Source: Candidatus Krumholzibacteriota bacterium (GTDB lineage Bacteria; Krumholzibacteriota; Krumholzibacteriia; JAJRXK01). Taken from it: 64,000 nucleotides of DNA. The stretch is taken from contig CAVXTH010000009.1 in assembly GCA_963764625.1 (NCBI GenBank), positions 288,001-352,000 on the forward strand, read 5' to 3'. The translations under genes and the position numbers were made by a program. The notes beneath the pieces are model-generated. The model searched no databases. It was not told where the DNA came from and worked only from the letters and a program-made list of their open reading frames with translations. How positions within the stretch are numbered: the stretch's first letter is position 1; the number at the start of each line of letters is the position of its first letter. This document shows positions 16,196 through 32,437 of this stretch, in pieces.

Positions 16196-16569
16196 GGTCA
16201 CCTGTTTCAAGATTCAACTCGCATGCAGTTCGGTCTCGACGGGAACCTCGCGGTCGACGACCAGAGTTCCACGCACGTCGATTTTCTCTCCTGAGTTCTC
16301 AGGGTGCAATCCTTCCATCGTTCGTACTCCTTCCTTTTCTGGCGCGGGTTGGCCCTCGAGAACCGACGAACCTGTCCAACTTAGGGGGAGGTGAGAACCT
16401 CGCCACGAATGCGCGGCTGCCCGCGGCAGCGGCTTTCTGCCCCATTGGCGCCGAGAGGAGACAATCTGTCCGCTTTCGGTCCTCCAATGCGTTGACTTCA
16501 GTAGAGGCGGATTCCGATCCCCTCACCACTTGGAAACGCCGTCTGTCCCCTTCAGCCCGAGAGAAACCA

Positions 16570-17220
16570 ATGCAACGCCACGCCCTCAGTTCGATTCTCG
16601 CTCTGGCTCTGCTCGTCAGTGGCGCCTGTGGAAAGTCCCCCTCCGAGCCCAGCGAGCCCCCGCCGCCGGTTTCCGCACTCGCCTGCGAGAATCCGGCCCT
16701 GGCAGCCACTACGGCGCAGCCCTTCGATAAGGTGGAAGTCACCGGAATCTCCGGGATCGGAGATGAGACCTGGGTCGAGTACGAGACGGCCGCGGGCACC
16801 AAGGGGCTCACCGCGGTCGTCGTCGATGGAGAGGGCAAGGCTCAGATCGTGGTTCCGGCCAATCCGGATTCCCTGATGAAGAGCGCGAGCTTGAGCTGCG
16901 ACAGCTATCAGTCTCCCAATCTCCCGCCGATCAAGGACACGGTGAGTGTCGTGATCCTTCGCGTCGAGCCCGACGGAACCATTCTTCCACCGACGCCATC
17001 CACGATTCCGATCCAGGTCACATGCGGACCAGATAGTCCCAATGTAGACATCGATCGTCTGATGATCTTTGATGCTCCCGCGCAGCCGGAGCAAAAAGAC
17101 CACGTAATGGTCTTGTTCCAGGCCAGCAATGCCAGCTACGGGGCTCTTGCCGATGCCGAAGGGGAGGCCAACCATACGGGCTACTTGAGGGGCTACGTCA
17201 GTGTGAAGAACGAGAACTGA
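16570..17220 (+). CDS. Hypothetical lipoprotein
   Basis: MQRHALSSILALALLVSGAC lipobox followed by a Pro-rich linker; the ORF-track start at 15916 is over-extended. Confidence 0.6.
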   Translation: MQRHALSSILALALLVSGACGKSPSEPSEPPPPVSALACENPALAATTAQPFDKVEVTGISGIGDETWVEYETAAGTKGLTAVVVDGEGKAQIVVPANPDSLMKSASLSCDSYQSPNLPPIKDTVSVVILRVEPDGTILPPTPSTIPIQVTCGPDSPNVDIDRLMIFDAPAQPEQKDHVMVLFQASNASYGALADAEGEANHTGYLRGYVSVKNEN

Positions 17221-17388
17221 GTCGCACCGACCGGTGCGGACGAAAACGCTCGTCGACGCCCTTGACGCCGAAGGGCCGCTGTGTGCTAGCATCACGTGGC
17301 GCCCTTCCCCACAAGAACTGAGTCTTGCTTCTTGCTATGGGTGCACACCTCTACGAGGTTCCCATCTGATTTGTGGGAGGTTTCAAGT

Positions 17389-18222
17389 ATGCGAATGATT
17401 GCGAAACGGTTCGCTCTGCTGAGTGCCGCTCTGCTACTGCTGACGGTACTTGCTTCCCCTTCCTCTGCGGAGATCTCGCTCACGAGCATCTCCTGGTCGA
17501 CCGTGCAGGACAACGTCCAGTTCTCCCTGCACTTCCACAACGATGACCTTACAAATCCCTCGAGTACGGCGGATGTCACTCTGAGCGCCCAGCCATTCGG
17601 GATGTTCGTGGAGAGCTTGAGTCCACCGATTGGCACGTTCCAGGTGCCTATCCTTGCGCCCGACAGTTTCTTCGACATCACCTACGAGGTAGCGCTGGCT
17701 GCTCTTCCTCCGAGCGCTGAGGTCATCACGCCTCCTGGCGGCGGCGGAGCGACCAAGGCACCTCCGGTGGCTTGTCAGACCGACAGGTCCTGGGCCGGCA
17801 ACGTCGACGTCTTCTGGACCGGCGCCGACGGCAGCGGGCAGTCATTCTGGCATGCGGGAGCGATCGAGACTTGCCCTCAGGGGGGCAACTCCTACATCCA
17901 CGTGGTGATGGACTGTCAGGATCCTGCCGGTGTGAGCTGGTCGTTCAGTGGGCTGTGTCCCGGCTGGAGTGCTTCGCTCGTCGTCAATGCGGGGGGGATT
18001 CCCGGCGGAGCGGCCCCGAATCCCATTCCGACCGGGCCTTTCGACGGTTGGATTTGCGTTTCCGCGGATGGGACGGTCAACGACGGAGACATCTGCAACT
18101 TCAATCTGGATGCATCCTGTGGCGCCTCACCCGCGACCATCGCGATGACCGGCATCGCCTGCGTCTGTGGCGCGGTGCCCTCGGACGAATCCTCATGGGG
18201 CCGGGTGAAATCGCGCTACTAG
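17389..18222 (+). CDS. Secreted Cys-rich protein with C-terminal SWGRVKSRY motif
   Basis: GGGAGG RBS; signal peptide ..ASPSSA; 9 Cys in the C-terminal half; ends AVPSDESSWGRVKSRY. Confidence 0.8.
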   Translation: MRMIAKRFALLSAALLLLTVLASPSSAEISLTSISWSTVQDNVQFSLHFHNDDLTNPSSTADVTLSAQPFGMFVESLSPPIGTFQVPILAPDSFFDITYEVALAALPPSAEVITPPGGGGATKAPPVACQTDRSWAGNVDVFWTGADGSGQSFWHAGAIETCPQGGNSYIHVVMDCQDPAGVSWSFSGLCPGWSASLVVNAGGIPGGAAPNPIPTGPFDGWICVSADGTVNDGDICNFNLDASCGASPATIAMTGIACVCGAVPSDESSWGRVKSRY

Positions 18223-18258
18223 AGGCGTGGACACCTGGCGATTCAGATCACCGAAATG

Positions 18259-18298
18259 AAAGGAACGAGGAGTCCAAGCGGGCTCCTCGTTTCCTTTT
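18259..18298 (+). terminator. Rho-independent terminator
   Basis: Hairpin AAAGGAACGAGGAGTCC-AAGC-GGGCTCCTCGTTTCCTTTT just after stop 18222. Confidence 0.75.
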
Positions 18299-18530
18299 GT
18301 CCGCGATCTTCTCACGAGCGGGCAAATCAAGGTGTCTTTCGCAACTCGCTTGCTCGAGCGGGAAGAAGAGCTCGCACTCATGGGGAACGCGCAATCACAA
18401 CTGGATCGAATGAGTTCCATTCGTGTCGAAATCGACGGTACCAGCTACCATCAGACCACCCACACCTCCGTAGACCTCCATCGGTAGCCACGATCCCTCG
18501 AGAATCCGCTTCTTGCTACGCCGTGAGGAA

Positions 18531-18546
18531 TGGCACGCAATCTTCT
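18531..18546 (+). promoter_or_regulatory. Possible sigma-54-like promoter for the PorV/TonB operon
   Basis: TGGCACGCAATCTTCT: perfect -24 element and variant -12 (CTTC), about 110 nt before GTG 18656. Confidence 0.35.
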
Positions 18547-18655
18547 TGTGGGCCCTGCGATCCTGGATCCCTCCGACCAGAGCACAAGTCCCGTTCCTGT
18601 CTGGTCGTTCCCAGCTCGGGAGGATTGTCCCGCGCGCAGAGGAGAGGCGATTGAC

Positions 18656-21600
18656 GTGTCGAAGCATCCGAAAATCCGACTCCTTTCGGCGATCGTGACG
18701 ATCGCGGCAGGGCTCTTTCTCGGACAGTTCAGCGTCTCCGACGCATTCGCGCAGAGCTACGCTCAACTTCAAATCCTTCTTCCGGGCGAGACGCCCGCTC
18801 CCGGAACTCTAGGTGGCAAGTCCGGTCAACCCGATACGCAGACGGTGGGAGTTCCATTCTCCATTCGAGTGAGGGCTTGTGATAATTCGTGGAATGCACA
18901 GACTTCCATCACGAGCCAAATCGCGATTAGCAGTAGTGACGAAACGGCCACGCTTCCTTCCAGCGCCCAGATGAGTGCGGGAGAAGTGCAATTTATGGTC
19001 ACGCTCAACGCCGACGGTCAATTCGACTTTCAGGCGAGTGATCTGACCGACACCACGATTCCCGACGCCACTTCGAGTCAGGTGACCACCGTATTACTCC
19101 AGGGTTTCGAATTCGCCCGGATCAACCAGAAAAACCAATACGCCGGGCAGGCGATGTCGATCTCGATGTGGGCGGTGGATTCCAACGGCCAGCCGCTGAA
19201 CAACTACGATGGGCCGGTTCGACTTCGCGAGTTGACCAGCTACGGAGAGGGCCGGATCACCCCTTCCACCGTCGACCTGGTGAACGGGCATTGGTCGGGA
19301 CAGATCACGATGTACCGGGCGGATGAGACTTCCATCAACCGGGGCAACGTGAACATCTACGCTCTTTTGGACAACGATCCCACCCGCAACGGAACGAGCG
19401 ATCCGTTCTCGGTGCACCCGGGCACATTTTCACGCGTGCAGATCGTGGTGCCGGGACAGACGGCGGATCCGGGAAGTGCCGCTGGTCTTTTTGGAAGCGC
19501 GGCGACCCAGGGAGCGGGTCAGGCCTTCACCGTCGAGGTCTACGCCACCGACGACTACTGGAATCCTCTTCCCAGCGGTGACACGGTCCGCATCATCTCC
19601 AACGATCCCCTCGCAAGTACTCCGGTGAGTGGCGCGCTGAGTAACGGCTTTCGGCAGTTCACCCTATCCCTGGGAACGGTGGGTTCGCAAACTCTGACCG
19701 TTTCCGATCAATCGTCGGGTGGAATTACGGGGATGACCAGCATGGGCATCCCGGTCATTCCCAATGCCATCAACGGCTTCGCGGTTGATACTTTCGCCAC
19801 TCCGGTCCAGGCGGGGGATTCGGTCTCGGTGACGATCCGAGCCGTGGACAACTCGGGGAACACGGTGCCCGGCTACTTCGGCGAAGCCAACCTGGCCGCC
19901 AATACCGGCCCGGGCAGTATTTCGCCGGACCGCATCAGCTTCGATTCGGGGGTCTGGACGGGGAAGATGGTTTTCCGTGGCGCCGGGGGAGCAGTTTCCT
20001 TTACCTGCTCCGATTTTGCTGCGCCGCCCCACTTTGGTTCGAGCTCCAATTTCCAGGTGTTACCGGGCCCATTCGAGAAGCTGCAGGTTCGTCTGCCGGG
20101 TGAGACCGCGCAGGGAGGAACCGTGACTGGAGTCTCGGGCTCGCCCACCGATCAGAATGCGGGAACGAGCTTTACCCTCACTATTCGTGCCGTCGACGCG
20201 TACTGGAACCGGGTTCCGGGAATCAACGACGCGGTGACTCTCTCTTCCAGCGACGCATTTGCCAGTTTCCCAGCCAGCGTATCGCTGCTCAATGGGGAAG
20301 TAACGGTTCCCGCGACGCTCTATAAGGCCGGATACCAGACGGTGGGCGCCAGCGATGCCGATTCGTCGCAGATCACCGCACACACTTCGAGTCAGGTCGA
20401 CATTCTTCCCGGCACCTATTCCCGCGTTTTGATTCTGGCGCCAGGTGAGTTCGCGGCGCCGGGTACGGAAGAGGGCCGCACGGGAATGGCAACCGATCAA
20501 TCGATCAACTACGCATTCACGGTGACGGTGTACGCGACCGACCAGTGGTGGAATCCGACGACGGGAATCACCGACGTGGTTCGTCTCAGCTCTTCGGACG
20601 TTCTGGCAGAACTTCCGGGCGACACCGCACTGCAAGACGGAGTGGCTCAGCTGAGCATGCGACTTTCCACCGGTGGCTATCAGCAGATCACCGTGCAGAA
20701 CGTCACGCAACCCGGCATGCCCACGAGCACCACGCAGGTGCGCGCCATCTCCAGCGGATTCCATTTGGAAGCCGAAGTGGACAGCACACACGTGATGGCG
20801 GGACAGACCTTCCACTTGACGGTCAAAGTCACCAATGACGCGGGAAGCGTCATCCAGGAGATCAATACCGGAGTGAATCTGACGGTTCGCAACGCCTCTT
20901 CGGGTCAGCCAGGGGCGGGAGATCTGCGCACGACGCAGTTCCAGCTCTTGCAAGGTCAGAGGACGGTGGAGATGTCCTACACCCATGCCGAGGACATCCA
21001 GATTACCGCCACCGACGACCTGGGCCACGATCCCGCCGTTACCGAGGTGATCGCGGTAGTGCCGGGTACTCCCGATCACATCGCGCTGCGCAGCGATCCC
21101 GATTGGTTGAACGGAAACAAGCACTCCACGATCTACGCTCAAGTTCTCGACGAGTTCGAGAACGGAGTGCCGGCGCAGGCAATGGACTTCACCCTCACGC
21201 AGGGGACGGGAATTCTCACTCCCACCGACCTCCAAACCGATGACTTTGGAGTCGCGCGAGCGGACTTCTTGAGCCCCCGCGAACCCGAGATCGATGTGGT
21301 TCGGGCCAGCTCGGGTAGCCTGATGCAGGACTTGCAGGTCGAGACGGCGCTTGTCGATCCCAATGCGCCCGGGGGAACGATCGCTAGCTATCCCAATCCC
21401 TTCCACCCCAACGAGAGTCCCACCACGATCGCCTACAAGTTGGCGGACAACGCCTCGGTTCGGATGAGGATCTACACCCTGAGCGGAAATCTCGTATTCG
21501 AGCAGGACTTTGCTCCGGGAAGCGTGGGCGGGACCGTCGGGCTGAACGAGATCGTCTGGGACGGTCGCAATGGGGACAACGAATTCGTGGCCAGCGGCGG

Positions 21601-21679
21601 TTATATCGTCGAGGTCCGTGCGGAAGGCAACGGCCAGACTCTCCATGTGATGCGTCGCAAAGTCGGCGTCGTCCGATAG
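18656..21679 (+). CDS. Large secreted Ig-like repeat protein with C-terminal FlgD-Ig/T9SS-CTD-like domain
   Basis: Signal peptide ..DAFA/QSY; four repeats LQILLPGET..PG...Q.AG..F.V.V.A.D.YWN; invasin/Big-like segment (VLDEFENGVP..TDDFGVA); C-terminus SYPNPFHP...WDGRN...SGGY...RKVGVVR. Confidence 0.85.
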   Translation: MSKHPKIRLLSAIVTIAAGLFLGQFSVSDAFAQSYAQLQILLPGETPAPGTLGGKSGQPDTQTVGVPFSIRVRACDNSWNAQTSITSQIAISSSDETATLPSSAQMSAGEVQFMVTLNADGQFDFQASDLTDTTIPDATSSQVTTVLLQGFEFARINQKNQYAGQAMSISMWAVDSNGQPLNNYDGPVRLRELTSYGEGRITPSTVDLVNGHWSGQITMYRADETSINRGNVNIYALLDNDPTRNGTSDPFSVHPGTFSRVQIVVPGQTADPGSAAGLFGSAATQGAGQAFTVEVYATDDYWNPLPSGDTVRIISNDPLASTPVSGALSNGFRQFTLSLGTVGSQTLTVSDQSSGGITGMTSMGIPVIPNAINGFAVDTFATPVQAGDSVSVTIRAVDNSGNTVPGYFGEANLAANTGPGSISPDRISFDSGVWTGKMVFRGAGGAVSFTCSDFAAPPHFGSSSNFQVLPGPFEKLQVRLPGETAQGGTVTGVSGSPTDQNAGTSFTLTIRAVDAYWNRVPGINDAVTLSSSDAFASFPASVSLLNGEVTVPATLYKAGYQTVGASDADSSQITAHTSSQVDILPGTYSRVLILAPGEFAAPGTEEGRTGMATDQSINYAFTVTVYATDQWWNPTTGITDVVRLSSSDVLAELPGDTALQDGVAQLSMRLSTGGYQQITVQNVTQPGMPTSTTQVRAISSGFHLEAEVDSTHVMAGQTFHLTVKVTNDAGSVIQEINTGVNLTVRNASSGQPGAGDLRTTQFQLLQGQRTVEMSYTHAEDIQITATDDLGHDPAVTEVIAVVPGTPDHIALRSDPDWLNGNKHSTIYAQVLDEFENGVPAQAMDFTLTQGTGILTPTDLQTDDFGVARADFLSPREPEIDVVRASSGSLMQDLQVETALVDPNAPGGTIASYPNPFHPNESPTTIAYKLADNASVRMRIYTLSGNLVFEQDFAPGSVGGTVGLNEIVWDGRNGDNEFVASGGYIVEVRAEGNGQTLHVMRRKVGVVR

Positions 21680-21692
21680 GGGAGGAAGCAGG

Positions 21693-22949
21693 ATGAAATC
21701 CATGAAATCTTCAAATGCTGTTCTTCTAAGTTGTGTCCTGCTGATCGTGCTCGGGTCCGCTTGCGTCGCGTTCGCGCAGGATCCCGTCTACGGTCAATCA
21801 GGCGATTGGCTCACCAGTTATCAAACCGCGCGGACCGCGGGCATGGGCGGGGCCTTTGTTGCCGACGCCGATGGCGCGCTGGGAGTTCTCTGGAATCCCG
21901 CCGGCCTGAGCCGGCTTCTGCAGAATCAAACTCAATTCGAGACGGTCGACCTCTTTGGTGAGTCACGTATGAACGCGTTCAGCTTCGCGTTGCCGGGACA
22001 GACTTTCCCCAGCGTGGGAATCAGTTTCGTGACCCTCAACTCGGGCAACTTCGAACGCACCAACGAGCTGAACGACCATCTCGGAACCTTCAAGGACGGA
22101 AATCTCGGCGTCTATCTCACCGCGGCCAAGAAAGTGTCCGATCGGGTGCATCTGGGCGCCAACTTCAAGATGGTCCGACAATCGTTGGAGGACTTCAGCG
22201 GTGGTGGGGTGGGCCTCGATCTGGGTCTCATGGTGAATCTGGCTCCTCAGTGGAGGATCGGTGCCAGCGCGCTCAACCTCGGTGGACCGAGCGTGACGAT
22301 GAGGGAGACCACCGAGAAATACCCGATGAACTTCCGCGGCGGACTGGCGTGGCACGGTCTGAAGGGCCGCGCGCTCGTCGCGGCGCAAGTGGACGCGCAG
22401 GATGGTCCCGGGGCCCAGTTCTCGACCGGGGCCGAGGTCTGGGTGCATCGCGTGCTGGCGCTGCGCGCGGGATATCGCGAGCAGCGAGTGGGTGGCGGGC
22501 TCAGCGTTCGGGTCTCCCAAAACCTCCGCCTGGATTACAGCGCGCAAGACAACGAACTTGGAGTTCTACACCGGGTGGGCGTGGTCTACGATTTCGGAGG
22601 ATTCCATGCCACTTCGCAGGCCACTCCAGAGATCTTCTCACCTAGCGGTGAGAACGCCGTCACCACTTTCCACCTGAAAACCCGCACCCGCGGAGAAGCG
22701 GTCGAGTGGTCCCTGGATATCATCGACAAGGACGACCAGTTGGTGCGCCGGTTCGGGGGTAAGGGGAATCCTCCCGCCCTCGTGTTGTGGGACGGCACGG
22801 ACGAGTCTGGAATGCAGTTGCCCGACGGCAGCTATCGTTACCGCTTCTCGATCACTGACGACGAAGGCGTGGAGATTTCCGCCAAGGAGCAGGTGGTAGA
22901 GATCTCTACCTCGGGTCCCCAGGGCAAAATCCCGGTGGAAGTCAATTGA
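21693..22949 (+). CDS. PorV/PorQ (FadL-superfamily) beta-barrel fused to a C-terminal FlgD-Ig domain
   Basis: ARTAGMGGAFVA..LWNPAGL, GVGLDLG, LALRAGY, LDYS..ELGVLHRVGVVYDFG; then PEIFSPSGE..WDGTDESG..LPDGSYRY. Confidence 0.8.
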   Translation: MKSMKSSNAVLLSCVLLIVLGSACVAFAQDPVYGQSGDWLTSYQTARTAGMGGAFVADADGALGVLWNPAGLSRLLQNQTQFETVDLFGESRMNAFSFALPGQTFPSVGISFVTLNSGNFERTNELNDHLGTFKDGNLGVYLTAAKKVSDRVHLGANFKMVRQSLEDFSGGGVGLDLGLMVNLAPQWRIGASALNLGGPSVTMRETTEKYPMNFRGGLAWHGLKGRALVAAQVDAQDGPGAQFSTGAEVWVHRVLALRAGYREQRVGGGLSVRVSQNLRLDYSAQDNELGVLHRVGVVYDFGGFHATSQATPEIFSPSGENAVTTFHLKTRTRGEAVEWSLDIIDKDDQLVRRFGGKGNPPALVLWDGTDESGMQLPDGSYRYRFSITDDEGVEISAKEQVVEISTSGPQGKIPVEVN

Positions 22950-22972
22950 CGCGAGTCAGGAGCAGAATTCGC

Positions 22973-25900
22973 ATGAAAAACTGGACGCGAATACTCACAA
23001 CGGAGCTGCTCACAGCCATCCTTCTCGTGCTTCTCTTCCCGGGAACGTCACGGGCCGAGGATGAGCCGAGTGACTCCAGCCAAACCAACGATCAGAGCGT
23101 ACAGACTCCGACGACGCTTACCGGATTGGGAATTCGCTTCGAATTGGCGAAAGCCTTGACGGGCGCCGCGCGTACCGAGGCCATCCAGTCGCTGGAGGAT
23201 CCTCTTCGCGCCGTTCTCGACTCGAATCTCGATGATGGTGAGAAAGCGGGCGTGAACTTCCTCCTGGCGGAGATGGAAAAGGAGCTGGGCCGGCCTTCTC
23301 GTGCGCGTGAGCTCTTCGAGGAGTCGGCGAAAAAGGACAAAAATGGTCCTTTCGTGGATGACGCGGAGTTCGCCGCAATCCGCGCGCTGGAAGCGGCGGG
23401 CAAAGACGAGGAAGCGCAAAAGCAGTGGGAGAAATGGCAGAAAGACCATCCCCACAGCCCTCTTCTCGCGCAGGCGTGGGTCGCGCGGGTTTGGAACGAT
23501 CTGCGTCAAGCGAAGTGGACTGAGGCCGACGCGGGGCTGAAGCACCTGGAGACCCTAGCGCCCTACACCCAGCAGACCCAGCGGGTGGTCCTGGCTCGTG
23601 CGACTCTGCGCTATGCGCAAGGCAAGCCACAGGAGTGCTTGCAGGAACTGGCAAAGGTGCCCACCCACTCGGCGGCCGAGATCTACCTGAAGGCGCTTTG
23701 CTTCGATGAACAGGGTGAGGTACTGCACGCCGCAGCGGCCTACCAGGAAGTCTACGAGCGCTACTCGGATTCCCCCTTACGCTTTCTCGCTCTCTATGCC
23801 AAGGCCAACGCCTTTCTGAATGGCGGCGCGTACCAAAGCGCAGCCGAAGGGTTCGCTGCGGTGGCAAAGGGGAGCAGCGACGAGGAGCTGCAAGCCGAGG
23901 CGCTTCTGCGCCAAGGGGTCGCACTCTTCCAAGAGGGAAGCATGGAGGAGGCGACTCCGATTCTGAAGGGTCTGGTGAGCCGCTTTCCCAAGGCGGATGC
24001 ATCGGCTCGGGGACAGTTTCTGCTGGGTGAAATCAGCGCGGCGCAAAACGATCCGCAAGCCGCGATCGTCGAGTACAACCTGGTGCTGCGGAATTACTTC
24101 GAACATCAGGTCGCAGCGAGCGCCCAGTATCGCATCGGACGCTGCTACGAGACCCTCGGCCGCGGGGCCGAGGCGGTGGGAGCCTATGAAACCGTGGTGC
24201 GCGGGTATCCGCTCGAGGCCGAGGCGCCTCCCGCGGCCTATCTCGCTGGGGTCGGACTGTTGGAATCGGGCCGACCGCTCGCGGCCGCACCTTACTTTCA
24301 GCTGGTCCTCGATCGATACGCCGGAAAAAAGGGCAGCGAGGGAGCGCTGGTCTTCAAGAACGACAAGCAGAAGGAAGTCGTCGAGGCCGCTCTGTGTCTC
24401 CTCCTGCTCTCGTACCATCAGGCTGGCGATCTGGGTCAGCTCAGTGGCGCCCCCCACCTGATGCTTCTGGCCATGCCCGAAAGCAACTCGAACTGGCGAG
24501 GTTATGCCCTTCTCATCGACGCGGATGCCCTGGCCTCGCAGGGGCGCTATCAAGACGCACAGGCTTCACTTCAGAATCTTCTGGGCGAGTTCAAGGAGCA
24601 CGATGTGGCGCTTCCCGCCACTCAGCTTCTGGCCTGGACCTACGCGCAGCAGGGCATGGACGATTTGGCCATTGCCACCGAGAAGAAAATGCTCCAGCGC
24701 TTCACGCCCGACGAATCAAGCGATGCGGTGAGATCCGCTTACCTGCGCATGGCCCATGTGAATTTCAATCAGAAACATTACGCGAAGGCGGTCGAGATCT
24801 ACGAGGACTACCGCCATCGCTTCGGTGATTCCCTGCAGTACGCGCTGGCCACCTACCAGGCGGGGGTTTGTTACGCGCGTCTGGATCGCACCGGCGACGC
24901 GGTGGACCGCTGGGAAGAGCTGGTCGCGCGCCAGCCCGATGTTCCCATTGCAGAGAAGGCTTGGGCCCGCGCCGGCGATCTGTACTTCCAATCCGGCCAC
25001 TACGAGGATGCCAAGCGTTGCTACCAAGGTCTTTTGAACAACTTCGCGAGCAGCAGCGCGGGAGCCACCGGGCTGCTCCGCATGGCACAGTGCGACTACA
25101 ATGCGGGACGAGACGCGGAGGCCCTGCAAGGCTATTCGGCCGTTATCTCGCAGTACCCGCACACCACGAGCGCCAAGGAGGCCAAGCGGGGGATGGAGCT
25201 GGCTCTCTACCGGCTCGGCCAAGAGGACTCGGGAAGCGAGGTCTTGGCGGAACTGATCGAGAAATATCCCGAAAGCAGTTTCGCGGCCGACGCTCAGTTC
25301 CAAATCGCCAGTGGTCTCTACGAGAAGGAAAAGTACGCGGAAGCGGCCGAAGCCTTCCGTCAGGTCGTCAGTCGCTTTCCCAGCTATGACGAAGTCGATC
25401 GAGCTCAGTTCTTGAGCGGGGAGGCCTGGGCCAAGGCAGGGCAGACCGAGCACTCGATCCAAGCCTACCAGCAGTTCCTCCTCTTCTTCCCCGAGAGCGA
25501 GTTGCGCTCGACCGTCCAGTTCAGGTTGGGGCTACAGCTCTACCAGAAGCAGGACTACATGGAAGCCGCGGTGAAATTCACCGCAGTGGTGGATCAGACG
25601 AAAGACAAGGAACTCCAGCGTGCGGGTCTCTTCAATCTGGCGATGGCGCAGCAGCTCCTGGGCAAATTGACAGATGCCAGGGCGAGCCTAGAGCGCTACC
25701 GGAGCGAGTATCCGAAGGATGAGCGGAGTGTCGAAGTCGCTCTCCAGCTGGGAAAGCTCCACGAGTCCGCCGGTGAATGGGAAGCGGCCGCGAAAGAGTA
25801 CGAAACCGCGTTGAATACCGGAGTGGGCAAGGACTCGATCACGGAGGTCCTCTATCGGCTGGGCCAATGCCGTGAAAAATTGACTGAGCCCGACAAGGCC

Positions 25901-26113
25901 CTGGCGGCTTACAAGCGCTCGATGAAAACCGGCGGAGCCAAAGACTCCTATCGTCTGTCGGCGATCGCCCGCTGCGCCGAGATCTACGAAGACCGCCAGG
26001 ACTACTCGAGCGCGGTCGCCGCCTATCGAGATCTCATTCAGAACGCGGACGATCCGGAGTTGGTTGCCGTGGCGCAGAGCCGCGTCAAGGAGCTCAAATC
26101 TGTCATTCACTAG
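22973..26113 (+). CDS. Large periplasmic TPR-repeat protein (BamD/CpoB-like repeats)
   Basis: Signal peptide; about 1050 aa of tandem TPRs with YP.S-type turns (YPLEAEA, YPHTTSA, YPESSFA, FPESEL). Confidence 0.88.
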   Translation: MKNWTRILTTELLTAILLVLLFPGTSRAEDEPSDSSQTNDQSVQTPTTLTGLGIRFELAKALTGAARTEAIQSLEDPLRAVLDSNLDDGEKAGVNFLLAEMEKELGRPSRARELFEESAKKDKNGPFVDDAEFAAIRALEAAGKDEEAQKQWEKWQKDHPHSPLLAQAWVARVWNDLRQAKWTEADAGLKHLETLAPYTQQTQRVVLARATLRYAQGKPQECLQELAKVPTHSAAEIYLKALCFDEQGEVLHAAAAYQEVYERYSDSPLRFLALYAKANAFLNGGAYQSAAEGFAAVAKGSSDEELQAEALLRQGVALFQEGSMEEATPILKGLVSRFPKADASARGQFLLGEISAAQNDPQAAIVEYNLVLRNYFEHQVAASAQYRIGRCYETLGRGAEAVGAYETVVRGYPLEAEAPPAAYLAGVGLLESGRPLAAAPYFQLVLDRYAGKKGSEGALVFKNDKQKEVVEAALCLLLLSYHQAGDLGQLSGAPHLMLLAMPESNSNWRGYALLIDADALASQGRYQDAQASLQNLLGEFKEHDVALPATQLLAWTYAQQGMDDLAIATEKKMLQRFTPDESSDAVRSAYLRMAHVNFNQKHYAKAVEIYEDYRHRFGDSLQYALATYQAGVCYARLDRTGDAVDRWEELVARQPDVPIAEKAWARAGDLYFQSGHYEDAKRCYQGLLNNFASSSAGATGLLRMAQCDYNAGRDAEALQGYSAVISQYPHTTSAKEAKRGMELALYRLGQEDSGSEVLAELIEKYPESSFAADAQFQIASGLYEKEKYAEAAEAFRQVVSRFPSYDEVDRAQFLSGEAWAKAGQTEHSIQAYQQFLLFFPESELRSTVQFRLGLQLYQKQDYMEAAVKFTAVVDQTKDKELQRAGLFNLAMAQQLLGKLTDARASLERYRSEYPKDERSVEVALQLGKLHESAGEWEAAAKEYETALNTGVGKDSITEVLYRLGQCREKLTEPDKALAAYKRSMKTGGAKDSYRLSAIARCAEIYEDRQDYSSAVAAYRDLIQNADDPELVAVAQSRVKELKSVIH

Positions 26114-26149
26114 TTCACGAGGCATTCCCGAAGCAAAGGAGAACTCTCG

Positions 26150-26863
26150 ATGTTTGCCGAATTCGACTGGGTAGGAGCCACACGCTCGAGCCCGATCATG
26201 CTTCTGCTGCTCGTTCTCAGCATCGTCACTCTGGCCGTGACCATAGAACGGTTTCTCTATTACCGGAGGCGATCGGGAGATCCCGAGCAGACCCTACACA
26301 AGGCACTCGAGTGCCTCCGCAGGGGGAAGGCCTCCGAAGCTCTGCATCAGTGCGAGAGCTGTAGCCATCCGATGGGTCGAGTCGCGGCCCAGGTGTTGTC
26401 GAGCTCCAAGGAGCTTCCGGCGGAATTCGAAGAGCGTCTGCAAGTCGCTCTGAGCCTCCAGAAGTTGCTCCTGGAGAAGAACCTTTCGGTGCTGGGCAGC
26501 ATGGCCGCGGTGGCGCCTTTGATCGGACTTTTCGGAACGGTCTGGGGCATCATGCGGGCCTTCCACGACATGGCGCAGGTGGGCTCCGCCGCACCTTCGG
26601 TGGTGGCGGCTGGAGTCGCGGAAGCTCTGTTGACCACCGCGGCAGGTCTGATCATCGCGGTTCCCGCGGTCCTTCTCTACAACCACTTCTCGCGCCGAAT
26701 GTCGGTCATGCTGACCATTGCGGAAAACCACACACGTTCGCTTCGCGCGTCCTTCGGTGAACGGCCCAATGCCGCGAACGAGGACTTGGGTCCTACCGTG
26801 GATCGCATCCGTTCGGTCATCTCCGAACCGTCGACCGAGCCGGTGGCCAGCACGCATCCATAG
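26150..26863 (+). CDS. exbB: MotA/TolQ/ExbB proton channel subunit
   Basis: APLIGLFGTVWGIMRAF and GVAEALLTTAAGLIIAVPA; three TM segments. Confidence 0.95.
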   Translation: MFAEFDWVGATRSSPIMLLLLVLSIVTLAVTIERFLYYRRRSGDPEQTLHKALECLRRGKASEALHQCESCSHPMGRVAAQVLSSSKELPAEFEERLQVALSLQKLLLEKNLSVLGSMAAVAPLIGLFGTVWGIMRAFHDMAQVGSAAPSVVAAGVAEALLTTAAGLIIAVPAVLLYNHFSRRMSVMLTIAENHTRSLRASFGERPNAANEDLGPTVDRIRSVISEPSTEPVASTHP

Positions 26864-26875
26864 GAGACTGAGCTC

Positions 26876-27283
26876 ATGCGGAATTCCGAGCATCGACCCG
26901 GTGGAGGCGGGAGTCACGAAATCAACGTGACTCCGCTCATCGACGTTTCCTTGGTTCTGGTGGTCATCCTGCTGCTGGCGACACCTCTGGCGTTCGAGTC
27001 GAGCATCTCGATGCGCCAAGCGGAAGCCAGCGCCAGAAGGGCCAGCGAGGAGACCAAACAGGAGAGAGTCGAGATCCAGATCCTCAGCGATGAGGCTCTC
27101 GAGGTGAATCGCAAGCACATCGACCAGGAGTCGTTGGAGGAAGTTCTGACGCCTTTGCTGGCGAATGCCGGAAAGATCGAAGTCGTCGTGGAGTGCGCGG
27201 ATGCGGTCAGTCACGGTCGATTCGTGAACATCCTGGACCGCACAAAGCTCTGCGGGGCTCAGAAGATCGCGGTGAAGGAGTAG
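26876..27283 (+). CDS. exbD: ExbD/TolR family protein (copy 1)
   Basis: EINVTPLIDVSLVLVVILL with the conserved TM Asp. Confidence 0.93.
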   Translation: MRNSEHRPGGGGSHEINVTPLIDVSLVLVVILLLATPLAFESSISMRQAEASARRASEETKQERVEIQILSDEALEVNRKHIDQESLEEVLTPLLANAGKIEVVVECADAVSHGRFVNILDRTKLCGAQKIAVKE

Positions 27284-27286
27284 AAC

Positions 27287-27712
27287 ATGAAAAAGCCGCT
27301 TTTCGATGAGCTTCCGTGCTTCGTGAAGATCAACGTCACGCCGATCATCGACGTGGCCTTGGTGCTGGTGATCATACTATTGGTCACCGCTCCGATGATC
27401 AGCGTTGCCGATCTCGACATCAAGCTGCCGACGGCCCACACCCGAGGCGCCGAAGACGAGCACCGCATCAGCGTGAGCTACAGCTCGGACGGACAGCTCG
27501 CCGTCGATGACCAGATGGTGAGTCTCTCTTCGCTGGCCGGAATCGTTCGAAGTCGTCTCGGGAGCGGCAGCGGAGATCAAACTCTCGTGGTCGTGCGTGC
27601 CGACGCTCGAGCCACCCACGGGGAAATTCGGGCCATCATGCGCGAAATCAAGAGTTCCGGGGCAAGCCGGGTCGCGGTGGCCACGAACCAGAGCGGAAGC
27701 GAGCGACCGTGA
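27287..27712 (+). CDS. exbD: ExbD/TolR family protein (copy 2)
   Basis: KINVTPIIDVALVLVIILLVTAP, IKLP.A, VVVRAD. Confidence 0.93.
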   Translation: MKKPLFDELPCFVKINVTPIIDVALVLVIILLVTAPMISVADLDIKLPTAHTRGAEDEHRISVSYSSDGQLAVDDQMVSLSSLAGIVRSRLGSGSGDQTLVVVRADARATHGEIRAIMREIKSSGASRVAVATNQSGSERP

Positions 27713-28656
27713 ATGCCATGGCCTACGCGCAGACTCTCGAGCTCCGTGAGGAACACGAGCTGAGGCAAAAAGGATGGATCGGAAGTCTGATCATCCATGC
27801 CCTCCTCTTGTCGCTCTTGGTCCTCTATCCGCGCATCTCGCCGCCCCCCGCTGCGTTGACGGAATTCACCTGGCTCGAGAATTCCGGAACCACCAAGGAC
27901 CCCGTCGAGGTGGCGGCTCCTCCGATGCAGGCAGCGACCGAAAAACCGAGAGTGAAGGACAAGCCCTCGCCTCAACCGACGACGCAGGCCCGGTTCGAGC
28001 GGGCGGAGAACGAGAAGGCCGAGGTGGAACCAAAACCTCAGAGTCTCACCGCGCGCGACGATCGGCTCAGCGAGCGTCTGGCGTCACTTCGTGAGAGTCG
28101 CCCCACCCTCGCGGTGGAGACCCCCCATAGTTCGTCGCTCTTGAAGGCGCCCGCGACCGAAGTATCCAAGTCGGGGGCCATCGACCAGAAGAAACTCATT
28201 CGTGAGTCGGGCATTCCCACCGCCGCGCCGGCGAAATTGCGGCGGGAGACGAGCTTGAGCCGCACCCCTTCGCTGGCCACCGTGAAGCCCACCGAAATTG
28301 TTACCGCACCGAGCGCGATCATTCCCAAGAACGCTGATCTCACGGTGCGGCGGACCCTGTCGGGCGCGTCGCTCGCGGGACCGGCCGCCGACCGTCCCAT
28401 CCGCAAGTACATGATGCCGGAGTATCCCGAATGGGCGAAGAAAGAGGGCGTCGAGGGAACGGTCTCGCTCGGCTTCGTGGTGCTTCCTGACGGAAGAGTC
28501 AAGGCCAACGTCATGGTGCACCGCACCTCGGGTTACCAGGATTTCGATCTTCGGGCGCAAAAGGCCCTGCGGATGTGGCAGTTTCAGCCCTTACCCGCGG
28601 GCTCGACCCAAGAACAATGGGGCAGCATCACTATCCACTTCAGGCTGACCAGCTAG
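27709..28656 (+). CDS. tonB: TonB family energy transducer
   Basis: N-terminal TM SLIIHALLL (S..H motif); Pro/Lys/Glu-rich linker; TonB_C YPEWAKKEGVEGTV..DGRV..SGY..FD..A..W.F.P. Confidence 0.92.
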   Translation: MNAMAYAQTLELREEHELRQKGWIGSLIIHALLLSLLVLYPRISPPPAALTEFTWLENSGTTKDPVEVAAPPMQAATEKPRVKDKPSPQPTTQARFERAENEKAEVEPKPQSLTARDDRLSERLASLRESRPTLAVETPHSSSLLKAPATEVSKSGAIDQKKLIRESGIPTAAPAKLRRETSLSRTPSLATVKPTEIVTAPSAIIPKNADLTVRRTLSGASLAGPAADRPIRKYMMPEYPEWAKKEGVEGTVSLGFVVLPDGRVKANVMVHRTSGYQDFDLRAQKALRMWQFQPLPAGSTQEQWGSITIHFRLTS

Positions 28657-28673
28657 TGGGAGGATTCTTCATC

Positions 28674-29684
28674 ATGAAAGCCGGAACCACCCGAATCACG
28701 GGTAACCTCGGTCTCGTTCACGCCACCGCTTTGTTGGCGCTTATCCTTCTGTCCCCACCCGTGGCGGCGCGCGGAGCGGAGCCGTCGAAGCCGGCGCCGG
28801 TGTCGAAGTCCGCCAAGCCAGCTGCGAGTCAAGCGGCGTCGGATTCGATGACCCTGAAGGGAGACGAAAAGACCACCGTCTTGCGCAGTCTAACCGTCGA
28901 GGGAGAAGACAAGGTCAAGATCGAATTCGATCGTCCCGAACTCGATCTCAAAATCGACAGCTACGACATCGAGGGTCTCAGCTGGGGAAGCGCTCTGGAT
29001 GTGGTGCAACGACGCGAGGTGGATCTGCTGTCTCCCGTGGTGCAATGCTCCAACGCGGAACGCGCCAGTGCCCTGGGACGCCCGTGGCTCCGTGCATTTC
29101 GAGATGGCTCGGTGGCTCGCTTTCATCCCGCCCTGGAAGGGGTGGCCAGCTGGCGGCTGACGATCGCGGATTCCAAGGGCGATACGGTTCGAGTCTTCAC
29201 CGGCAAGGGGTCTCTCCCCAAGGAGATCGCGTGGAACGGAGTGTACGACTCCGGGGAATTGGCGCTGCCGGGTTTGGTGTATTCGTACGTCCTTCAAGCC
29301 AAGGACAAGGCGGGGAATCGGCGCAATTTCGTGGGCGAGGGTTTCGAGGTTTCACCCTACCGGATCGAGGCAGACCATGCCTTCCATCTGGTCCTCTCGG
29401 GGAAGACCCTCCTGGGACCCGACGCGGCCCAGAGGCCCGAAGGAGTGGACGATCCCTGGCTGGTGGAAGCGGCGTCGTGGTTGAATCAACACGCGACCGC
29501 GGACCAGGCGATCGAAATCCACGTCTTCGCGCGCACTCACGAGATCGCGGAAGCCATGGGGGCGATCGTAGAAGAGCAGCTGGCACGACACTTGGCCGGC
29601 CCACCCTTGCGCCTCAAGATCATGACCCAAGCCCGCAGCGAGGCGCCGGTTCAAGGCGCGGTGACGATCGGGGTCAAGAGCTGA
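28674..29684 (+). CDS. Secreted protein with FlgD-Ig-like domain and degenerate OmpA-like C-terminus
   Basis: Signal peptide, P/A/K linker, LRSLTVEG..IEFDRP, and WRLTIADSKG..F.GKG..WNG..YSYVLQAKDKAGN. Last gene of the operon. Confidence 0.65.
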   Translation: MKAGTTRITGNLGLVHATALLALILLSPPVAARGAEPSKPAPVSKSAKPAASQAASDSMTLKGDEKTTVLRSLTVEGEDKVKIEFDRPELDLKIDSYDIEGLSWGSALDVVQRREVDLLSPVVQCSNAERASALGRPWLRAFRDGSVARFHPALEGVASWRLTIADSKGDTVRVFTGKGSLPKEIAWNGVYDSGELALPGLVYSYVLQAKDKAGNRRNFVGEGFEVSPYRIEADHAFHLVLSGKTLLGPDAAQRPEGVDDPWLVEAASWLNQHATADQAIEIHVFARTHEIAEAMGAIVEEQLARHLAGPPLRLKIMTQARSEAPVQGAVTIGVKS

Positions 29685-29803
29685 GACACGCTTTGTCTTT
29701 GGGCTTGTCCTGAAAGCGGGTATCATCCGAGCCATTCTCGACGTGGCGGCGCTGGCCAGGGCCGGGTCGTCCCCTTCCGCCACGAACGGTTCGGAGACAC
29801 GCG

Positions 29804-32437
29804 ATGATCGGCAGAAAGCTCGGCCCCTACGAGATCGAGGCCAAGGTCGGCAGCGGGGGGATGGGGGAGGTGTACCGGGCGCGCGACACCCGCCTCGGGC
29901 GTACGGTGGCCATCAAGGTCCTCCCTGCACACTTCGCCGCGGATCGCGACCGTCTGGCGCGCTTCGAACGAGAGGCGCGCCTTCTCGCTTCGCTCAATCA
30001 CCCTCACATCGCCACCCTTTACGACTTCGCCCACCACGAGGGCGAGTACTTTCTGGCCATGGAGCTGGTCGAGGGGGAGGATCTCTCGACCCGGCTCGCC
30101 CGTGGGCCCATGTCGATCGACGAGGCGGCGCGGGTGGCGGCCCAGGTGGCCGAGGCGCTAGAAGTTGCGCACGAGAGCGGCATGGTGCACCGCGACCTCA
30201 AGCCGTCCAACATTCGTTTCGGAGCCGACGGCCAGGTGAAGGTGCTCGACTTTGGCCTGGCCAAGGCGATCGAAGGCTCCGACGACGACATCAACAAATC
30301 GCCCACCATCATCGAGGTGACTTCGGCCGGGGTGATCCTGGGCACTGCCGCGTACATGAGCCCGGAGCAGGCTCGAGGCAAGATGGTGGACAAACGGTCC
30401 GACATCTGGGCGTTCGGCTGCGTGCTCTTCGAGATGCTCACGGCTCACCAGTTGTTTCAGGCCGAAACGGTATCGGACACCATCGCGAAGATCCTCGAGC
30501 GAGAACCATCCTGGGAGCTGCTTCCCGCCAACACTCCACCGCGAGTGAAGCGCCTCCTCGAGCGCTGCCTGGAAAAGGACGTGAAACGGCGTCTGCGCGA
30601 TATCGGTGACGCGCGCATCGAGCTCGAGGACGTGGTGGTAGATTCCAAAGTGATGGCGGCCCCTCTGCTTCCCGGGCCCCGCCGGCAGCGCTGGTTCCTC
30701 TGGCTCGGACTGGGACTCGTTCTGGGCGCTCTGCTGGCCTTCGTCGGGCTGCGGCTGGGCGGTCGCCAGGAGACCGTCTCTCTAGAGCAGACGAGACTCT
30801 CGATCAAGCCGGACGCGAATGTCATTCTTCAGGAAGTTCCACCGGCCCTCTCGCGGGATGGGCGCGCCCTTGCCTACATCGCGAGTACCTCGGACGGAGC
30901 GCGTTTGTTCCTACGCCGACTCGATTCGTGGGACTCGCGCATGCTCACCGACGTCAACGCCGGTAGTCCTTGTTTTTCGCCGGATGGCAGCTGGGTGGCC
31001 TTCAGGAGCCGGGGGGAGTCCGGGTTCCGTCTCCTGCGCGTCTCCGTCGACGGCGGCACGCCCCTGCTCATCGCAAAGAACGTGGGTGGGCCCGATGGAA
31101 ATGCCTGGACGAAAGACGGCCAGCTCATCTATCCGGCCAGCCTCAGCTCGGGACTCGTCTCCACTCCGGCCAGGGGTGGGGCTCCGACCGCACTCACTCA
31201 CCCCGACAGCAGCCAGGGTGAGCTCGGCCACTGGCAACCCTGTGTTCTTCCCGACGACGATCATGTCTTGTTCACCGCCTGGCGCACCCGCATGGATGAC
31301 GCGCGGATCGAGGTGGTGAGTCGCTCCAGCAAAGAAGTACGGGTTGTGGTGGAGAATGGGGTTTGTCCGATGTACATGGATCCCGGATATCTGCTGTACG
31401 TCCAGGGCGCCACGCTCATGTGCGTAGCCTTCGATCCGGGGCGCGCAGTGGTGACCGGGGACCCGGTTCCCCTCATCGATCCGGTGAATGTGCACATTTC
31501 GGATGGATCTACGGACCTCGCCGCGGGAGGGACGAATCTGTGCTATCTGCCCGATTCCGGCTCTCACGCACGCCTCGTGCGGGCCGATCCGCACGGAAAA
31601 GTCGAAGCGATCGTACCGGAAGAACGCAACTACAATCGGGTATCCATCGCACCGGATGGAAAGCACTTGGCCCTCTGTGTCGAACAAGCCGGCAAGAGCG
31701 ATCTCTGGGTGTTGGATTCGGCTCGCCACTCCTTTACACAACTCACCGTCGATGGCACCAACGCAGAGCCGATCTATTCTCCGGATGGGCGGACCCTCAC
31801 CTTTCAGAGCATGCGCCGTGGCCCGTTCGAACTCTACTCGATCAGCGCCAGCGGTGGTTCGGCCCCTCAGCTTTTGTTTCCCAGTGCGATCGATCTGCGT
31901 CCATTGAGCTGGACTCCGGATGGCAAGACTCTTTTGTTCGGGCAATCCAGCAAGGGAACGGGAACTGACGTCATGCGTTTCTCACCCGCGGATGGGAAGA
32001 TGAGTCCTTTCATCCAGTCGCCGTTCAACGAATTCGGTGCCGTGGTTTCTCCCGACGGTAACTGGGTTGCCTACAGCGCCACGAGTTCCGATCGGAGCGA
32101 AGTCTACGTTTCGAAGATGGATGGGGGGGATCGCTCTCAGGTCTCCGTCGACGGCGGGACCGGAGCCCGCTGGGCAGGTGACGGGCGAACTCTCTATTTT
32201 GCCGGTACTCAAGGTGAGGCTCTGTATCGAGTCGGTGTGACCCTCACTCCGGAATTTCGCGCGAGCCGGCCCGAGATGATTCTCTCCCACGAACAGCTCG
32301 GCGGATATGTCGAGAGCTACGATGTGTACCCTGAGAGCGAGCGTCTGGCCATCGTGCTCAACCGCGATACACAGGGACAGAGTGCGTTCCGCATCCTGAT
32401 GAACGTCCCGGCGGAACTCGAGAGGCGCATGAGATGA
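29804..32437 (+). CDS. Membrane Ser/Thr protein kinase with extracytoplasmic PD40/TolB beta-propellers
   Basis: GSGGMGEVY, VAIK, HRDLKPSN, DFG, GTAAYMSPEQ; TM WFLWLGLGLVLGALLAFVGL; repeated SPDG motifs. Confidence 0.93.
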   Translation: MIGRKLGPYEIEAKVGSGGMGEVYRARDTRLGRTVAIKVLPAHFAADRDRLARFEREARLLASLNHPHIATLYDFAHHEGEYFLAMELVEGEDLSTRLARGPMSIDEAARVAAQVAEALEVAHESGMVHRDLKPSNIRFGADGQVKVLDFGLAKAIEGSDDDINKSPTIIEVTSAGVILGTAAYMSPEQARGKMVDKRSDIWAFGCVLFEMLTAHQLFQAETVSDTIAKILEREPSWELLPANTPPRVKRLLERCLEKDVKRRLRDIGDARIELEDVVVDSKVMAAPLLPGPRRQRWFLWLGLGLVLGALLAFVGLRLGGRQETVSLEQTRLSIKPDANVILQEVPPALSRDGRALAYIASTSDGARLFLRRLDSWDSRMLTDVNAGSPCFSPDGSWVAFRSRGESGFRLLRVSVDGGTPLLIAKNVGGPDGNAWTKDGQLIYPASLSSGLVSTPARGGAPTALTHPDSSQGELGHWQPCVLPDDDHVLFTAWRTRMDDARIEVVSRSSKEVRVVVENGVCPMYMDPGYLLYVQGATLMCVAFDPGRAVVTGDPVPLIDPVNVHISDGSTDLAAGGTNLCYLPDSGSHARLVRADPHGKVEAIVPEERNYNRVSIAPDGKHLALCVEQAGKSDLWVLDSARHSFTQLTVDGTNAEPIYSPDGRTLTFQSMRRGPFELYSISASGGSAPQLLFPSAIDLRPLSWTPDGKTLLFGQSSKGTGTDVMRFSPADGKMSPFIQSPFNEFGAVVSPDGNWVAYSATSSDRSEVYVSKMDGGDRSQVSVDGGTGARWAGDGRTLYFAGTQGEALYRVGVTLTPEFRASRPEMILSHEQLGGYVESYDVYPESERLAIVLNRDTQGQSAFRILMNVPAELERRMR

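Follow-up and report, generated by a model that had tools for sequence, protein, structure and literature searches.

Within a 64,000 nt stretch of DNA (hereafter the window) from an uncultured sediment or soil bacterium, Candidatus Krumholzibacteriota bacterium (assembly GCA_963764625.1, contig CAVXTH010000009.1, positions 288,001-352,000 of the forward strand), we identified an operon of eight genes, P1-P8, that combines a tagged immunoglobulin-like (Ig) repeat protein and an outer-membrane barrel of the PorV/PorQ family with a complete ExbB-ExbD-ExbD-TonB motor. Since every related locus that could be tested has the eight genes in the same order, the arrangement goes well beyond chance. Our favoured reading, held tentatively and at a little below even confidence, is that a Ton-type motor is coupled here to a surface protein that is retained by a barrel of its own. 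Ton-, Tol- and Agl-type motors and the cargo-barrel pairs of type IX secretion systems (T9SS) are kinds already known; their union in one operon is the part that makes a new variant. The genome (G000; 3.57 Mb, 9 contigs, 96% complete) carries the window at G000:C9:288001-352000; coordinates prefixed with C4, C6 or C9 refer to contigs of this genome and all others to the window. The operon occupies 18656-29684, approximately 11 kb, with all genes on the + strand (ORF, open reading frame; TPR, tetratricopeptide repeat):

18656-21679, + strand: P1, Ig-repeat protein of 1007 amino acids, start codon GTG, longest ORF from 18530
21693-22949, + strand: P2, 418 amino acids, PorV/PorQ-family outer-membrane barrel with a C-terminal Ig domain
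22946-26113, + strand: P3, exported TPR protein of 1055 amino acids
26150-26863, + strand: P4, ExbB/TolQ-type proton channel subunit
26876-27283, + strand: P5, first ExbD/TolR paralogue
27287-27712, + strand: P6, second ExbD/TolR paralogue
27709-28656, + strand: P7, TonB-type transducer
28674-29684, + strand: P8, exported protein of 336 amino acids, start codon ATG, longest ORF from 28575

Intergenic distances from P1 to P8 were 13, -4, 36, 12, 3, -4 and 17 nt in the ORF calls, in keeping with an initial annotation of the region that had described eight co-directional genes with gaps below 40 nt.

Comparison with related genomes carried most of the argument for a functional unit. Loci were classed as A-type where they encoded a full-length P2 orthologue (39-52% identical) and as B-type where they encoded a full-length P2 relative of 28-35% identity. 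A search with P2 across 200 genomes of the window's own GTDB phylum, tallied by best E-value, yielded 77 A-type genomes, 51 with the B-type only and 72 with neither. The last group, displaying generic PorV-family matches or none, included three genomes of the same genus, and presence of the operon varied even inside genera. All 20 A-type loci fetched from the phylum contained P1-P8 in the same order and on the same strand. At the B-type loci P1, P2, P3, P4, P7 and P8 were in order in 20/20, with a P1 of more than 1600 amino acids and proteins 22-49% identical to those of the window. All eight genes were detected in eight B-type loci, seven in 11 and six in one; one or both short ExbD genes fell under the tblastn threshold in 12/20 loci, and no other gene was missed. 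Long frames over P2 in some B-type genomes, considered as a possible P1-P2 fusion, were rejected as shadow frames, P1 having its own stop.

A scan of species genomes for P8 with a 10-sequence A-type alignment retained 80 of 108 relatives. Those loci with at least 8.5 kb of upstream sequence contained all eight genes in order (39/39, eight of them being the same places as the A- and B-type loci above), the remaining 41 being cut by contig ends. The closest match was 82% identical for P8 and 81-92% for the other proteins and was labelled Krumholzibacteriota, and most other loci found in this way were labelled Eisenbacteria. In a second GTDB phylum, reached by way of one of these Eisenbacteria-labelled chromosomes, P8 was present in 30/81 genomes sampled (one an unpublished genome, G219), and all eight genes were present in 13/13 loci with enough DNA, three cut loci having been left out. 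This phylum was called distinct because its sampled genomes do not overlap the own-phylum set; the labels themselves are unreliable, several genomes labelled Latescibacterota or Fibrobacteraceae falling within the window's own GTDB phylum. The unit therefore spans two GTDB phyla, which carry the labels Krumholzibacteriota and Eisenbacteria, and exists as two diverged versions; its gene order is conserved in relatives, a point on which the initial annotation had staked its reading.

The flanks differed from locus to locus, with ORF families common to at most 4/20 A-type or 7/20 B-type loci. Downstream, 119 nt after P8, P9 (29804-32437, + strand) encodes a Ser/Thr protein kinase that is joined in one polypeptide with PD40 (TolB-type) beta-propeller repeats; only the nearest relative (locus L058, 71% identity) has it beside the operon, and it thus lies outside the conserved unit, which is exactly P1-P8. 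A tree of concatenated P1-P4 (41 rows, quick IQ-TREE, root not known) separated the A-type from the B-type with 100% support, and own-phylum rows grouped mostly by family. The window's row stood alone, 11/13 second-phylum rows formed one clade nested among own-phylum rows, and one second-phylum row (L142) fell inside an own-phylum clade with 99% support. This topology points to descent that was mostly vertical, accompanied by losses and some transfer. Median pairwise identities across 30-33 A-type operons were 55.7% for P1, 51.3% for P2, 49.1% for P3, 56.3% for P4, 51.7% for P5, 49.3% for P6, 38.8% for P7 and 43.9% for P8. As the eight genes have been selected as a unit, it is most likely that their products act jointly.

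P1 and P2 resemble a T9SS cargo accompanied by a PorV-like barrel of its own. P1 displayed a signal peptide, Ig-like modules and a C-terminal FlgD_ig-type tag, with Pfam matches over cut-off to Big_1 (38.8 bits) and, at the C-terminus, FlgD_ig (36.2 bits, cut-off 27). The number of modules was estimated at approximately eight or nine from four D..WN/PGET repeats (spacings of 223, 215 and 115 residues) and one Big_1 domain; the estimate rests on motif spacing because self-BLAST gave no off-diagonal repeat at E 1e-3. A sequence search of solved structures with P1 returned no match. Across the genome 89 FlgD_ig matches were found, 86 of which end within 40 residues of the stop codon, and FlgD_ig is therefore a general C-terminal tag of this organism, carried by approximately 86 proteins and used genome-wide alongside the T9SS translocon SprA. 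P1 was the best conserved non-motor protein and was never lost from the unit. Its median identity nearly equalled that of ExbB (55.7% versus 56.3%, 32-33 operons), and since it is as conserved as ExbB it is more readily taken for a structural part than for a free adhesin.

P2 matched the curated NCBIfam model PorV_fam (NF033709) at 107.1 bits against a cut-off of 90 (103.8 bits in a six-frame search of the genome), and a profile of its orthologues matched solved PorV (6h3i_F, E 1.3e-13). An AlphaFold2 model built on 25 orthologues (mean predicted local distance difference test score, pLDDT, 86) comprised a short helical N-terminal segment, a barrel and an Ig domain at approximately residues 305-404, the FlgD_ig match covering residues 326-388. 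The best Foldseek matches of this model were Flavobacterium johnsoniae PorV 8gl6_F (E 3.1e-10, template modelling score, TM, 0.62) and 6h3i_F (TM 0.65), followed by FadL, TodX and TbuX, so that P2 is predicted to adopt a FadL-type outer-membrane barrel fold like that of solved PorV. The hidden Markov model, the profile match and the modelled fold all agree with the PorV-like barrel named in the initial annotation. P2 remained under the equivalog cut-offs for PorV (NF033710, 19.3/250), PorQ (NF033711, 85/220) and PorV2 (47/325), and by sequence it is assigned to the PorV/PorQ family without being PorV itself.

The same barrel lends itself to another reading, in which the motor opens the lumen or N-terminal plug of P2, P1 acts as a surface substrate-binding protein and the whole serves import of a nutrient, or export of something other than P1, in the manner of a receptor-free utilisome. 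TonB systems normally open barrels, the fold matches next after PorV are FadL, TodX and TbuX, and the model places a short helical segment ahead of the barrel; moreover, a separate locus of the genome (L011, listed below) joins a PorV-family gene, a Ton motor, a receptor-like gene and TolC. However, no TonB-box-like strand was seen by eye at the N-terminus of P2 in the alignment, P1 carries no recognisable binding or catalytic domain beyond its Ig modules, and no inner-membrane transporter or catabolic gene is conserved beside the operon. We consider such transport unlikely, though the likeliest of the alternatives weighed here.

The five genes after the barrel encode a TPR protein and a Ton-type motor, as first annotated, with both the TPR protein of about 1050 residues and the full Exb/TonB set with its intact Asp and S..H motifs holding up on analysis. 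P3 contains CpoB/YbgF-type and BamD-type repeats (TPR_6, 179 bits; tol_pal_ybgF, the YbgF/CpoB model, 234 bits in seven stretches) and a signal peptide, with no lipobox Cys. It remained under the cut-offs of PorE (NF052230, 64/600) and of PorW/SprE (133/250), the latter having been proposed in the initial annotation among the comparisons to make. P4 matched MotA_ExbB at 115 bits, whilst P5 and P6 matched ExbD at 72 and 80 bits, each with the Asp in an ...IDV... membrane segment; the top NCBIfam matches of P4-P6 were TolQ and TolR. P7 comprises an N-terminal helix, a long low-complexity linker and a TonB_C domain (residues 237-313, 63.5 bits), and its S26 and H30 were invariant in 21/21 aligned sequences. 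On the AgmX/PglI C-terminal model (NF033768) P7 scored 23 bits against a cut-off of 40, a sequence-level result that speaks against a GltG-type C-terminal domain.

P8, the closing gene, encodes a protein with a signal peptide, no lipobox and no Pfam or NCBIfam family over cut-off. Its structural model, built on 24 sequences, was confident only from residue 140 onward. An Ig domain at approximately 140-233 (144-228 in the fold comparison) resembled FlgD and the PorU C-terminal domain (Z 8.5 and 9.1), and profile comparison indicated that it is homologous to its counterpart in P2 (hhalign probability 98.4, E 4.7e-15). Residues 236-336 matched the OmpA/MotB fold, the best comparison being 4b62_A, the TssL1 anchor (Z 10.5, root mean square deviation 3.2, 111 residues), followed by 6x62, a Dot type IV secretion system subunit (Z 10.3), MotB 3s03 (9.7) and Pal 4g4v (7.2); Foldseek returned a probability of 1.0 with TM 0.5-0.6. 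The model thus assigns the C-terminal domain to the OmpA/MotB peptidoglycan-binding type of fold, and the secreted Ig/OmpA-like protein described initially at this position is borne out by the signal peptide and both folds. Residues 59-135 are conserved but were not confidently folded alone (pLDDT 50-58), and this segment probably folds only on a partner, in which it recalls the TolA box of TolB. It contains the motif S-L-T-V-E-G-E-D in the A-type and E-M-V-V-E-A-E-N in the B-type, which we take to resemble a TonB box. Complex prediction of the P7 TonB_C region (215-315) with P8 (55-336) gave a score of 0.19 against a mark of 0.32, with controls not folded, and so speaks neither way on binding.

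A P8 profile retrieved 315 representative proteins at E <=1e-30 and 1065 at 1e-10. Approximately 65 of the best 150 matches were full-length, the rest being long proteins with many Ig-domain copies. Many of the proteins retrieved (P0015, P0024, P0029 and others) reach 1000-4000 amino acids with 8-24 tandem copies of the P8-type Ig domain, and some of these end in an Ig plus OmpA-like module. By ESM Atlas features, clusters resembling P8 were commonest in Krumholzibacteriota, Eiseniibacteriota and Elusimicrobiota (0.96-0.98), which serves as a lead only.

The features of P3 and P8 also bear on whether the operon is a second Tol-Pal-like tether, one that would use the motor, the CpoB-like P3 and the OmpA-like P8 to control how the outer membrane is linked to the cell wall, P2 being its anchor point in the outer membrane and P1 a passenger of little mechanistic importance. 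The seven matches of P3 to the YbgF/CpoB model, the OmpA/MotB fold of P8 with its Z of 7.2 to Pal and the TolQ and TolR matches of P4-P6 all fit such a role, as do P8 look-alikes with true OmpA domains in Elusimicrobiota and Spirochaetota (scores 0.86-0.88, leads only). Set against this, the genome has a complete canonical Tol-Pal cluster elsewhere, the operon contains no TolB, its occurrence is accessory and patchy, and the supposed passenger P1 is the non-motor protein that is best conserved and never lost. We regard a tether of this kind as improbable, and as ranking below transport through P2.

Seven MotA/ExbB loci were identified in the genome:

Locus 1, C6:616-620 kb: canonical TolQ-TolR-TolA-TolB-Pal-CpoB cluster, with a TolB-like gene at C6:618170 (304 bits) and an OmpA domain at C6:619737
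Loci 2 and 3: two TPR-ExbB-ExbD-ExbD-TonB cassettes without a barrel
Locus 4: an ExbB-ExbD pair
Locus 5: the P1-P8 operon
Locus 6, C4:46394-59648 (L012): a B-type operon copy, 41-68% identical to that of a same-family relative
Locus 7, C9:1049300-1062300 (L011): a PorV-family gene joined to a Ton motor

In the B-type copy on C4, none of P1, P2, P3 and P8 stays within a single reading frame, each being spread over several, and the copy is therefore probably decaying; gene density on that contig is otherwise normal (63 calls in 76.9 kb). The order at L011 is a receptor-like protein of 1005 amino acids, a 774-amino-acid protein, PorV_fam (186.6 bits), a GWxTD-domain protein, ExbB, a small protein, TonB and a TolC-family protein. 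At C9:276800-285700 (L016, - strand), 2-11 kb before the window, genes for a 1617-amino-acid protein, TPR, ExbB, ExbD, ExbD and TonB were also observed.

TonB-dependent receptors were matched five times in the genome, the nearest approximately 35 kb downstream of P8 and just beyond the window end. In none of eight other operon-bearing genomes was a PF00593 match (E <=1e-8) found closer to the operon than 50 kb. The absence of a TonB-dependent receptor, TolB or Pal from the cluster, already remarked in the initial annotation, therefore stood, such genes being located elsewhere in the genome, and the motor genes did not co-occur with a receptor in the relatives. By position alone, a functional link to distant receptors may still exist, and the motor could be an ordinary Ton system for receptors encoded elsewhere that merely neighbours a T9SS cargo-barrel pair. 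TPR proteins are required in the TonB2 system of Vibrio vulnificus (PMC6957404), and two further TPR-ExbB-ExbD-ExbD-TonB cassettes of this genome lack a barrel. Nevertheless, we give this explanation hardly any credence: its linkage with P1, P2 and P8 is kept in all testable loci, across two phyla and two anciently diverged versions whose flanks differ, and other Ton cassettes are available for the five receptors.

The genome also carries parts of a T9SS. SprA, for which the initial annotation had proposed a search, was present at C9:993505-1000012 as pieces of 236.8 and 223.6 bits (cut-off 200). Immediately ahead of a PorV_fam gene other than P2 (C6:504603-505505, 179.7 bits) stands a gene for a PorU-like C25 peptidase (C6:500978-504381, best piece 277.9 bits); P2 thus has no PorU pairing, and C6:500978-505505 is likely the genome's canonical porU-porV pair. 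PorV_fam genes numbered approximately 12, four of them directly after a gene with a FlgD_ig tail. The FGE-sulfatase (GldK-type) domain was matched three times, and no porKLMN-like cluster was found around the one such gene scanned, at C9:431732. GldM was matched by neither TIGR03517 nor PF12081 in this 96%-complete genome, where controls were silent or sub-cut-off. Together, the approximately 12 PorV/PorQ genes, the 86/89 C-terminal tags and the lack of a GldM match to two queries suggest a T9SS-like export system outside Bacteroidota whose energy source may differ from GldM. As Tol-Pal, SprA, a PorU-PorV pair and further Ton cassettes are all encoded elsewhere in the genome, P1-P8 is an extra, specialised system.

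The operon could alternatively be a dedicated device for secretion or assembly of P1 in which motor, TPR protein and barrel export P1 or assemble it, either replacing GldLM/PorLM or independently of SprA. The two unmatched GldM queries (controls weak), alongside the SprA, PorU-like and PorV-family genes, are compatible with this. The Oar/PopC route of Myxococcus offers a precedent for TonB-dependent protein secretion (PMC6434023). The tag, however, is shared by approximately 86 proteins, yet the operon is missing from about one third of the phylum's genomes and so cannot be a general motor for tagged proteins. In addition, a PorV/FadL-type barrel of approximately 14 strands is too narrow for a folded 1000-amino-acid Ig-repeat protein. 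We judge dedicated export rather improbable, ahead of a Tol-Pal-like tether and behind transport through P2.

Returning to a Ton-type motor coupled to a barrel-held surface protein, we propose the following arrangement. P4-P7 would reside in the inner membrane, where ExbB and two different ExbD proteins form a proton channel that drives the TonB-type transducer. P3 and P8 would occupy the periplasm, and P2 the outer membrane, its C-terminal Ig domain paralogous to that of P8. Sec would take P1 across the inner membrane and the SprA translocon of the genome would take it across the outer membrane, after which it would be held at the cell surface by its own barrel P2, much as PorZ is held by PorQ and as SprB depends on SprF. 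From the periplasm the motor would pull on the barrel complex via TonB, P8 and P3, which together supply the domain types fused in PorE, and the proton-motive force would thereby move, tension, reposition or release the protein at the surface. It is the presence of PorE-like domain types in P3 and P8, plus a complete Ton motor, that leads us to think that the motor acts on the barrel-cargo complex. The initial annotation had likewise envisaged a hybrid, a Ton/Agl-type motor energising a PorV-bound surface protein. The composition of the operon does parallel T9SS pairs and the Agl-Glt core, but P2 is not PorV, P7 falls short on the AgmX/PglI model and the hybrid is an analogy.

Several observations weigh against this proposal. 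TPR-ExbB-ExbD-ExbD-TonB cassettes that lack both barrel and cargo also exist, which makes the motor half by itself generic, and the operon as a whole is accessory and patchy. At a threshold of E 0.01 P8 had no PF00691 match, and inspection of its alignment by eye did not reveal the customary loop for binding peptidoglycan. The tail of P1, initially described as like a T9SS C-terminal domain, reached 18.8 bits on TIGR04183 (T9SS type A), under the cut-off of 23; of that description the Ig-repeat character, the length of about 1000 residues and a FlgD_ig tag stood. GldM, the motor component that a T9SS would lead one to expect, went unmatched by queries whose controls performed poorly. The export route of P1, the binding of P1 to P2, the target gripped by TonB and the outcome of the force are all points that we infer.

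Among described systems, the closest parallels to the P1-P2 pair are found in Bacteroidota, where cognate PorV-like barrels are encoded beside their cargo, as with PorQ-PorZ and with PorP/SprF and type B cargo, according to PMC10202324. The same source reports that one such cargo also requires the peptidoglycan-binding PorE, which has TPR, Ig-like and OmpA domains, and a 2025 study proposed a force coupling between PorE and a TolA/TonB-like protein (PMC12204202). As in the T9SS pairs PorZ-PorQ, PorU-PorV, SprB-SprF and PG_1035-PorP-PorE, a tagged gene here stands directly before a PorV-family barrel gene; TPR, Ig-like and OmpA-like periplasmic domains are present in P3 and P8, and SprA and PorU-PorV are present in the genome. 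Unlike those pairs, the operon includes a complete ExbB-ExbD-ExbD-TonB motor and its barrel has a C-terminal Ig domain. The host is not a member of Bacteroidota, and its GldM is unmatched (weak controls). PorE, furthermore, is one lipoprotein, whereas here the domains are split over P3 and P8 and there is no beta-propeller.

In composition alone the operon is also similar to the Agl-Glt core complex, with a TolQ-like, two TolR-like, a TonB-like and an exported TPR protein in one cluster. That core comprises aglR, aglQ, aglS, gltC, gltD, gltE, gltG and one extra gene (Luciano et al. 2011, PMC3169522). As the same report describes it, the core is of unknown function outside Myxococcus and has spread patchily with gene transfer, Myxococcus adding outer-membrane barrels and a surface adhesin. 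The core as described there includes neither a PorV-family barrel nor a T9SS-tagged protein, and P7, in contrast to an AgmX/PglI-type protein, ends in a canonical TonB_C domain. A cluster of Fibrobacter succinogenes, FSU_2396-2403, encoding OmpA, TPR, TPR, ExbB, ExbD, ExbD and TonB, is raised on cellulose according to PMC6851124 and, by analogy, may be the nearest studied relative. Like Tol-Pal, the operon encodes a TolQ/R-type motor driven by protons, a transducer of extended form, a TPR protein of the CpoB type and a protein with the OmpA fold; it differs in lacking TolB and a lipoprotein Pal, in having two ExbD/TolR paralogues and a TonB_C-type transducer, and in the added barrel and surface protein. 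It has ExbB, ExbD and TonB in common with Ton systems, including the membrane Asp and the S...H motif, but no receptor is linked to it and its PorV/FadL-type barrel is without a plug domain of the receptor kind. In the full-text literature, supplements aside, no description was found of an operon that unites ExbB-ExbD-TonB with a PorV-family barrel and a tagged cargo.

Should a PorV-family barrel and its cargo prove to be what the motor acts on, the reach of TonB-type force transduction would widen from nutrient receptors and Tol-Pal to the handling of surface proteins. The operon would then offer a compact test case for the force coupling of PorE-like TPR/Ig/OmpA modules (proposed for PorE in PMC12204202), and another for a surface-protein function of the core complex from which Myxococcus gliding evolved. 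Being self-contained, strictly conserved and only 11 kb in length, it is suited to heterologous expression and structural work despite its uncultured hosts. A bolder version of the proposal is that the operon represents a third proton-driven surface-protein machine beside GldLM-SprB and Agl-Glt, in which TonB would grip P8 by its TonB-box-like strand and move or tension a T9SS-delivered Ig fibre via the Ig domain of P2, for adhesion or gliding in phyla of the Fibrobacteres-Chlorobi-Bacteroidetes (FCB) group without detectable GldM. This we hold to be quite unlikely, behind transport through P2 and ahead of dedicated export of P1.

The region upstream of P1 contained two features:

18262-18293, + strand: terminator-like hairpin of 14 pairs followed by CTTTTGT, closing the upstream + strand ORF
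18531-18545, + strand: sigma-54-type -24/-12 element TGGCACGCAATCTTC, with two mismatches to TGGCAC-N5-TTGC, 125 nt before the P1 start

The hairpin marks the 5' boundary of the operon region. A scan of the window gave 47 matches to the sigma-54-type pattern against 53.6 expected, so that the element of the window taken alone was not above chance. At -170 to -70 of P1, TGGCAC-N5-TTGC with up to two mismatches was present at 16/19 A-type loci versus 37/950 control windows, and with up to one mismatch at 8/19 versus 4/380. Its recurrence at orthologous loci makes a sigma-54-type promoter before P1 likely. A scan for sigma-70-type promoters gave nothing exceeding chance, and Rfam returned no family match within 15500-30500. 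Further upstream, in the region 16210-18222, two ORFs with low coding scores touch at their edges (16552-17295, - strand; 17296-18222, + strand), and the ORFs of this region had no Pfam or NCBIfam match. Public sequencing runs listed as containing DNA of this genome numbered 18, none of them an RNA run, with shares of up to 0.35 and labels of salt-marsh, soil and wetland metagenomes.

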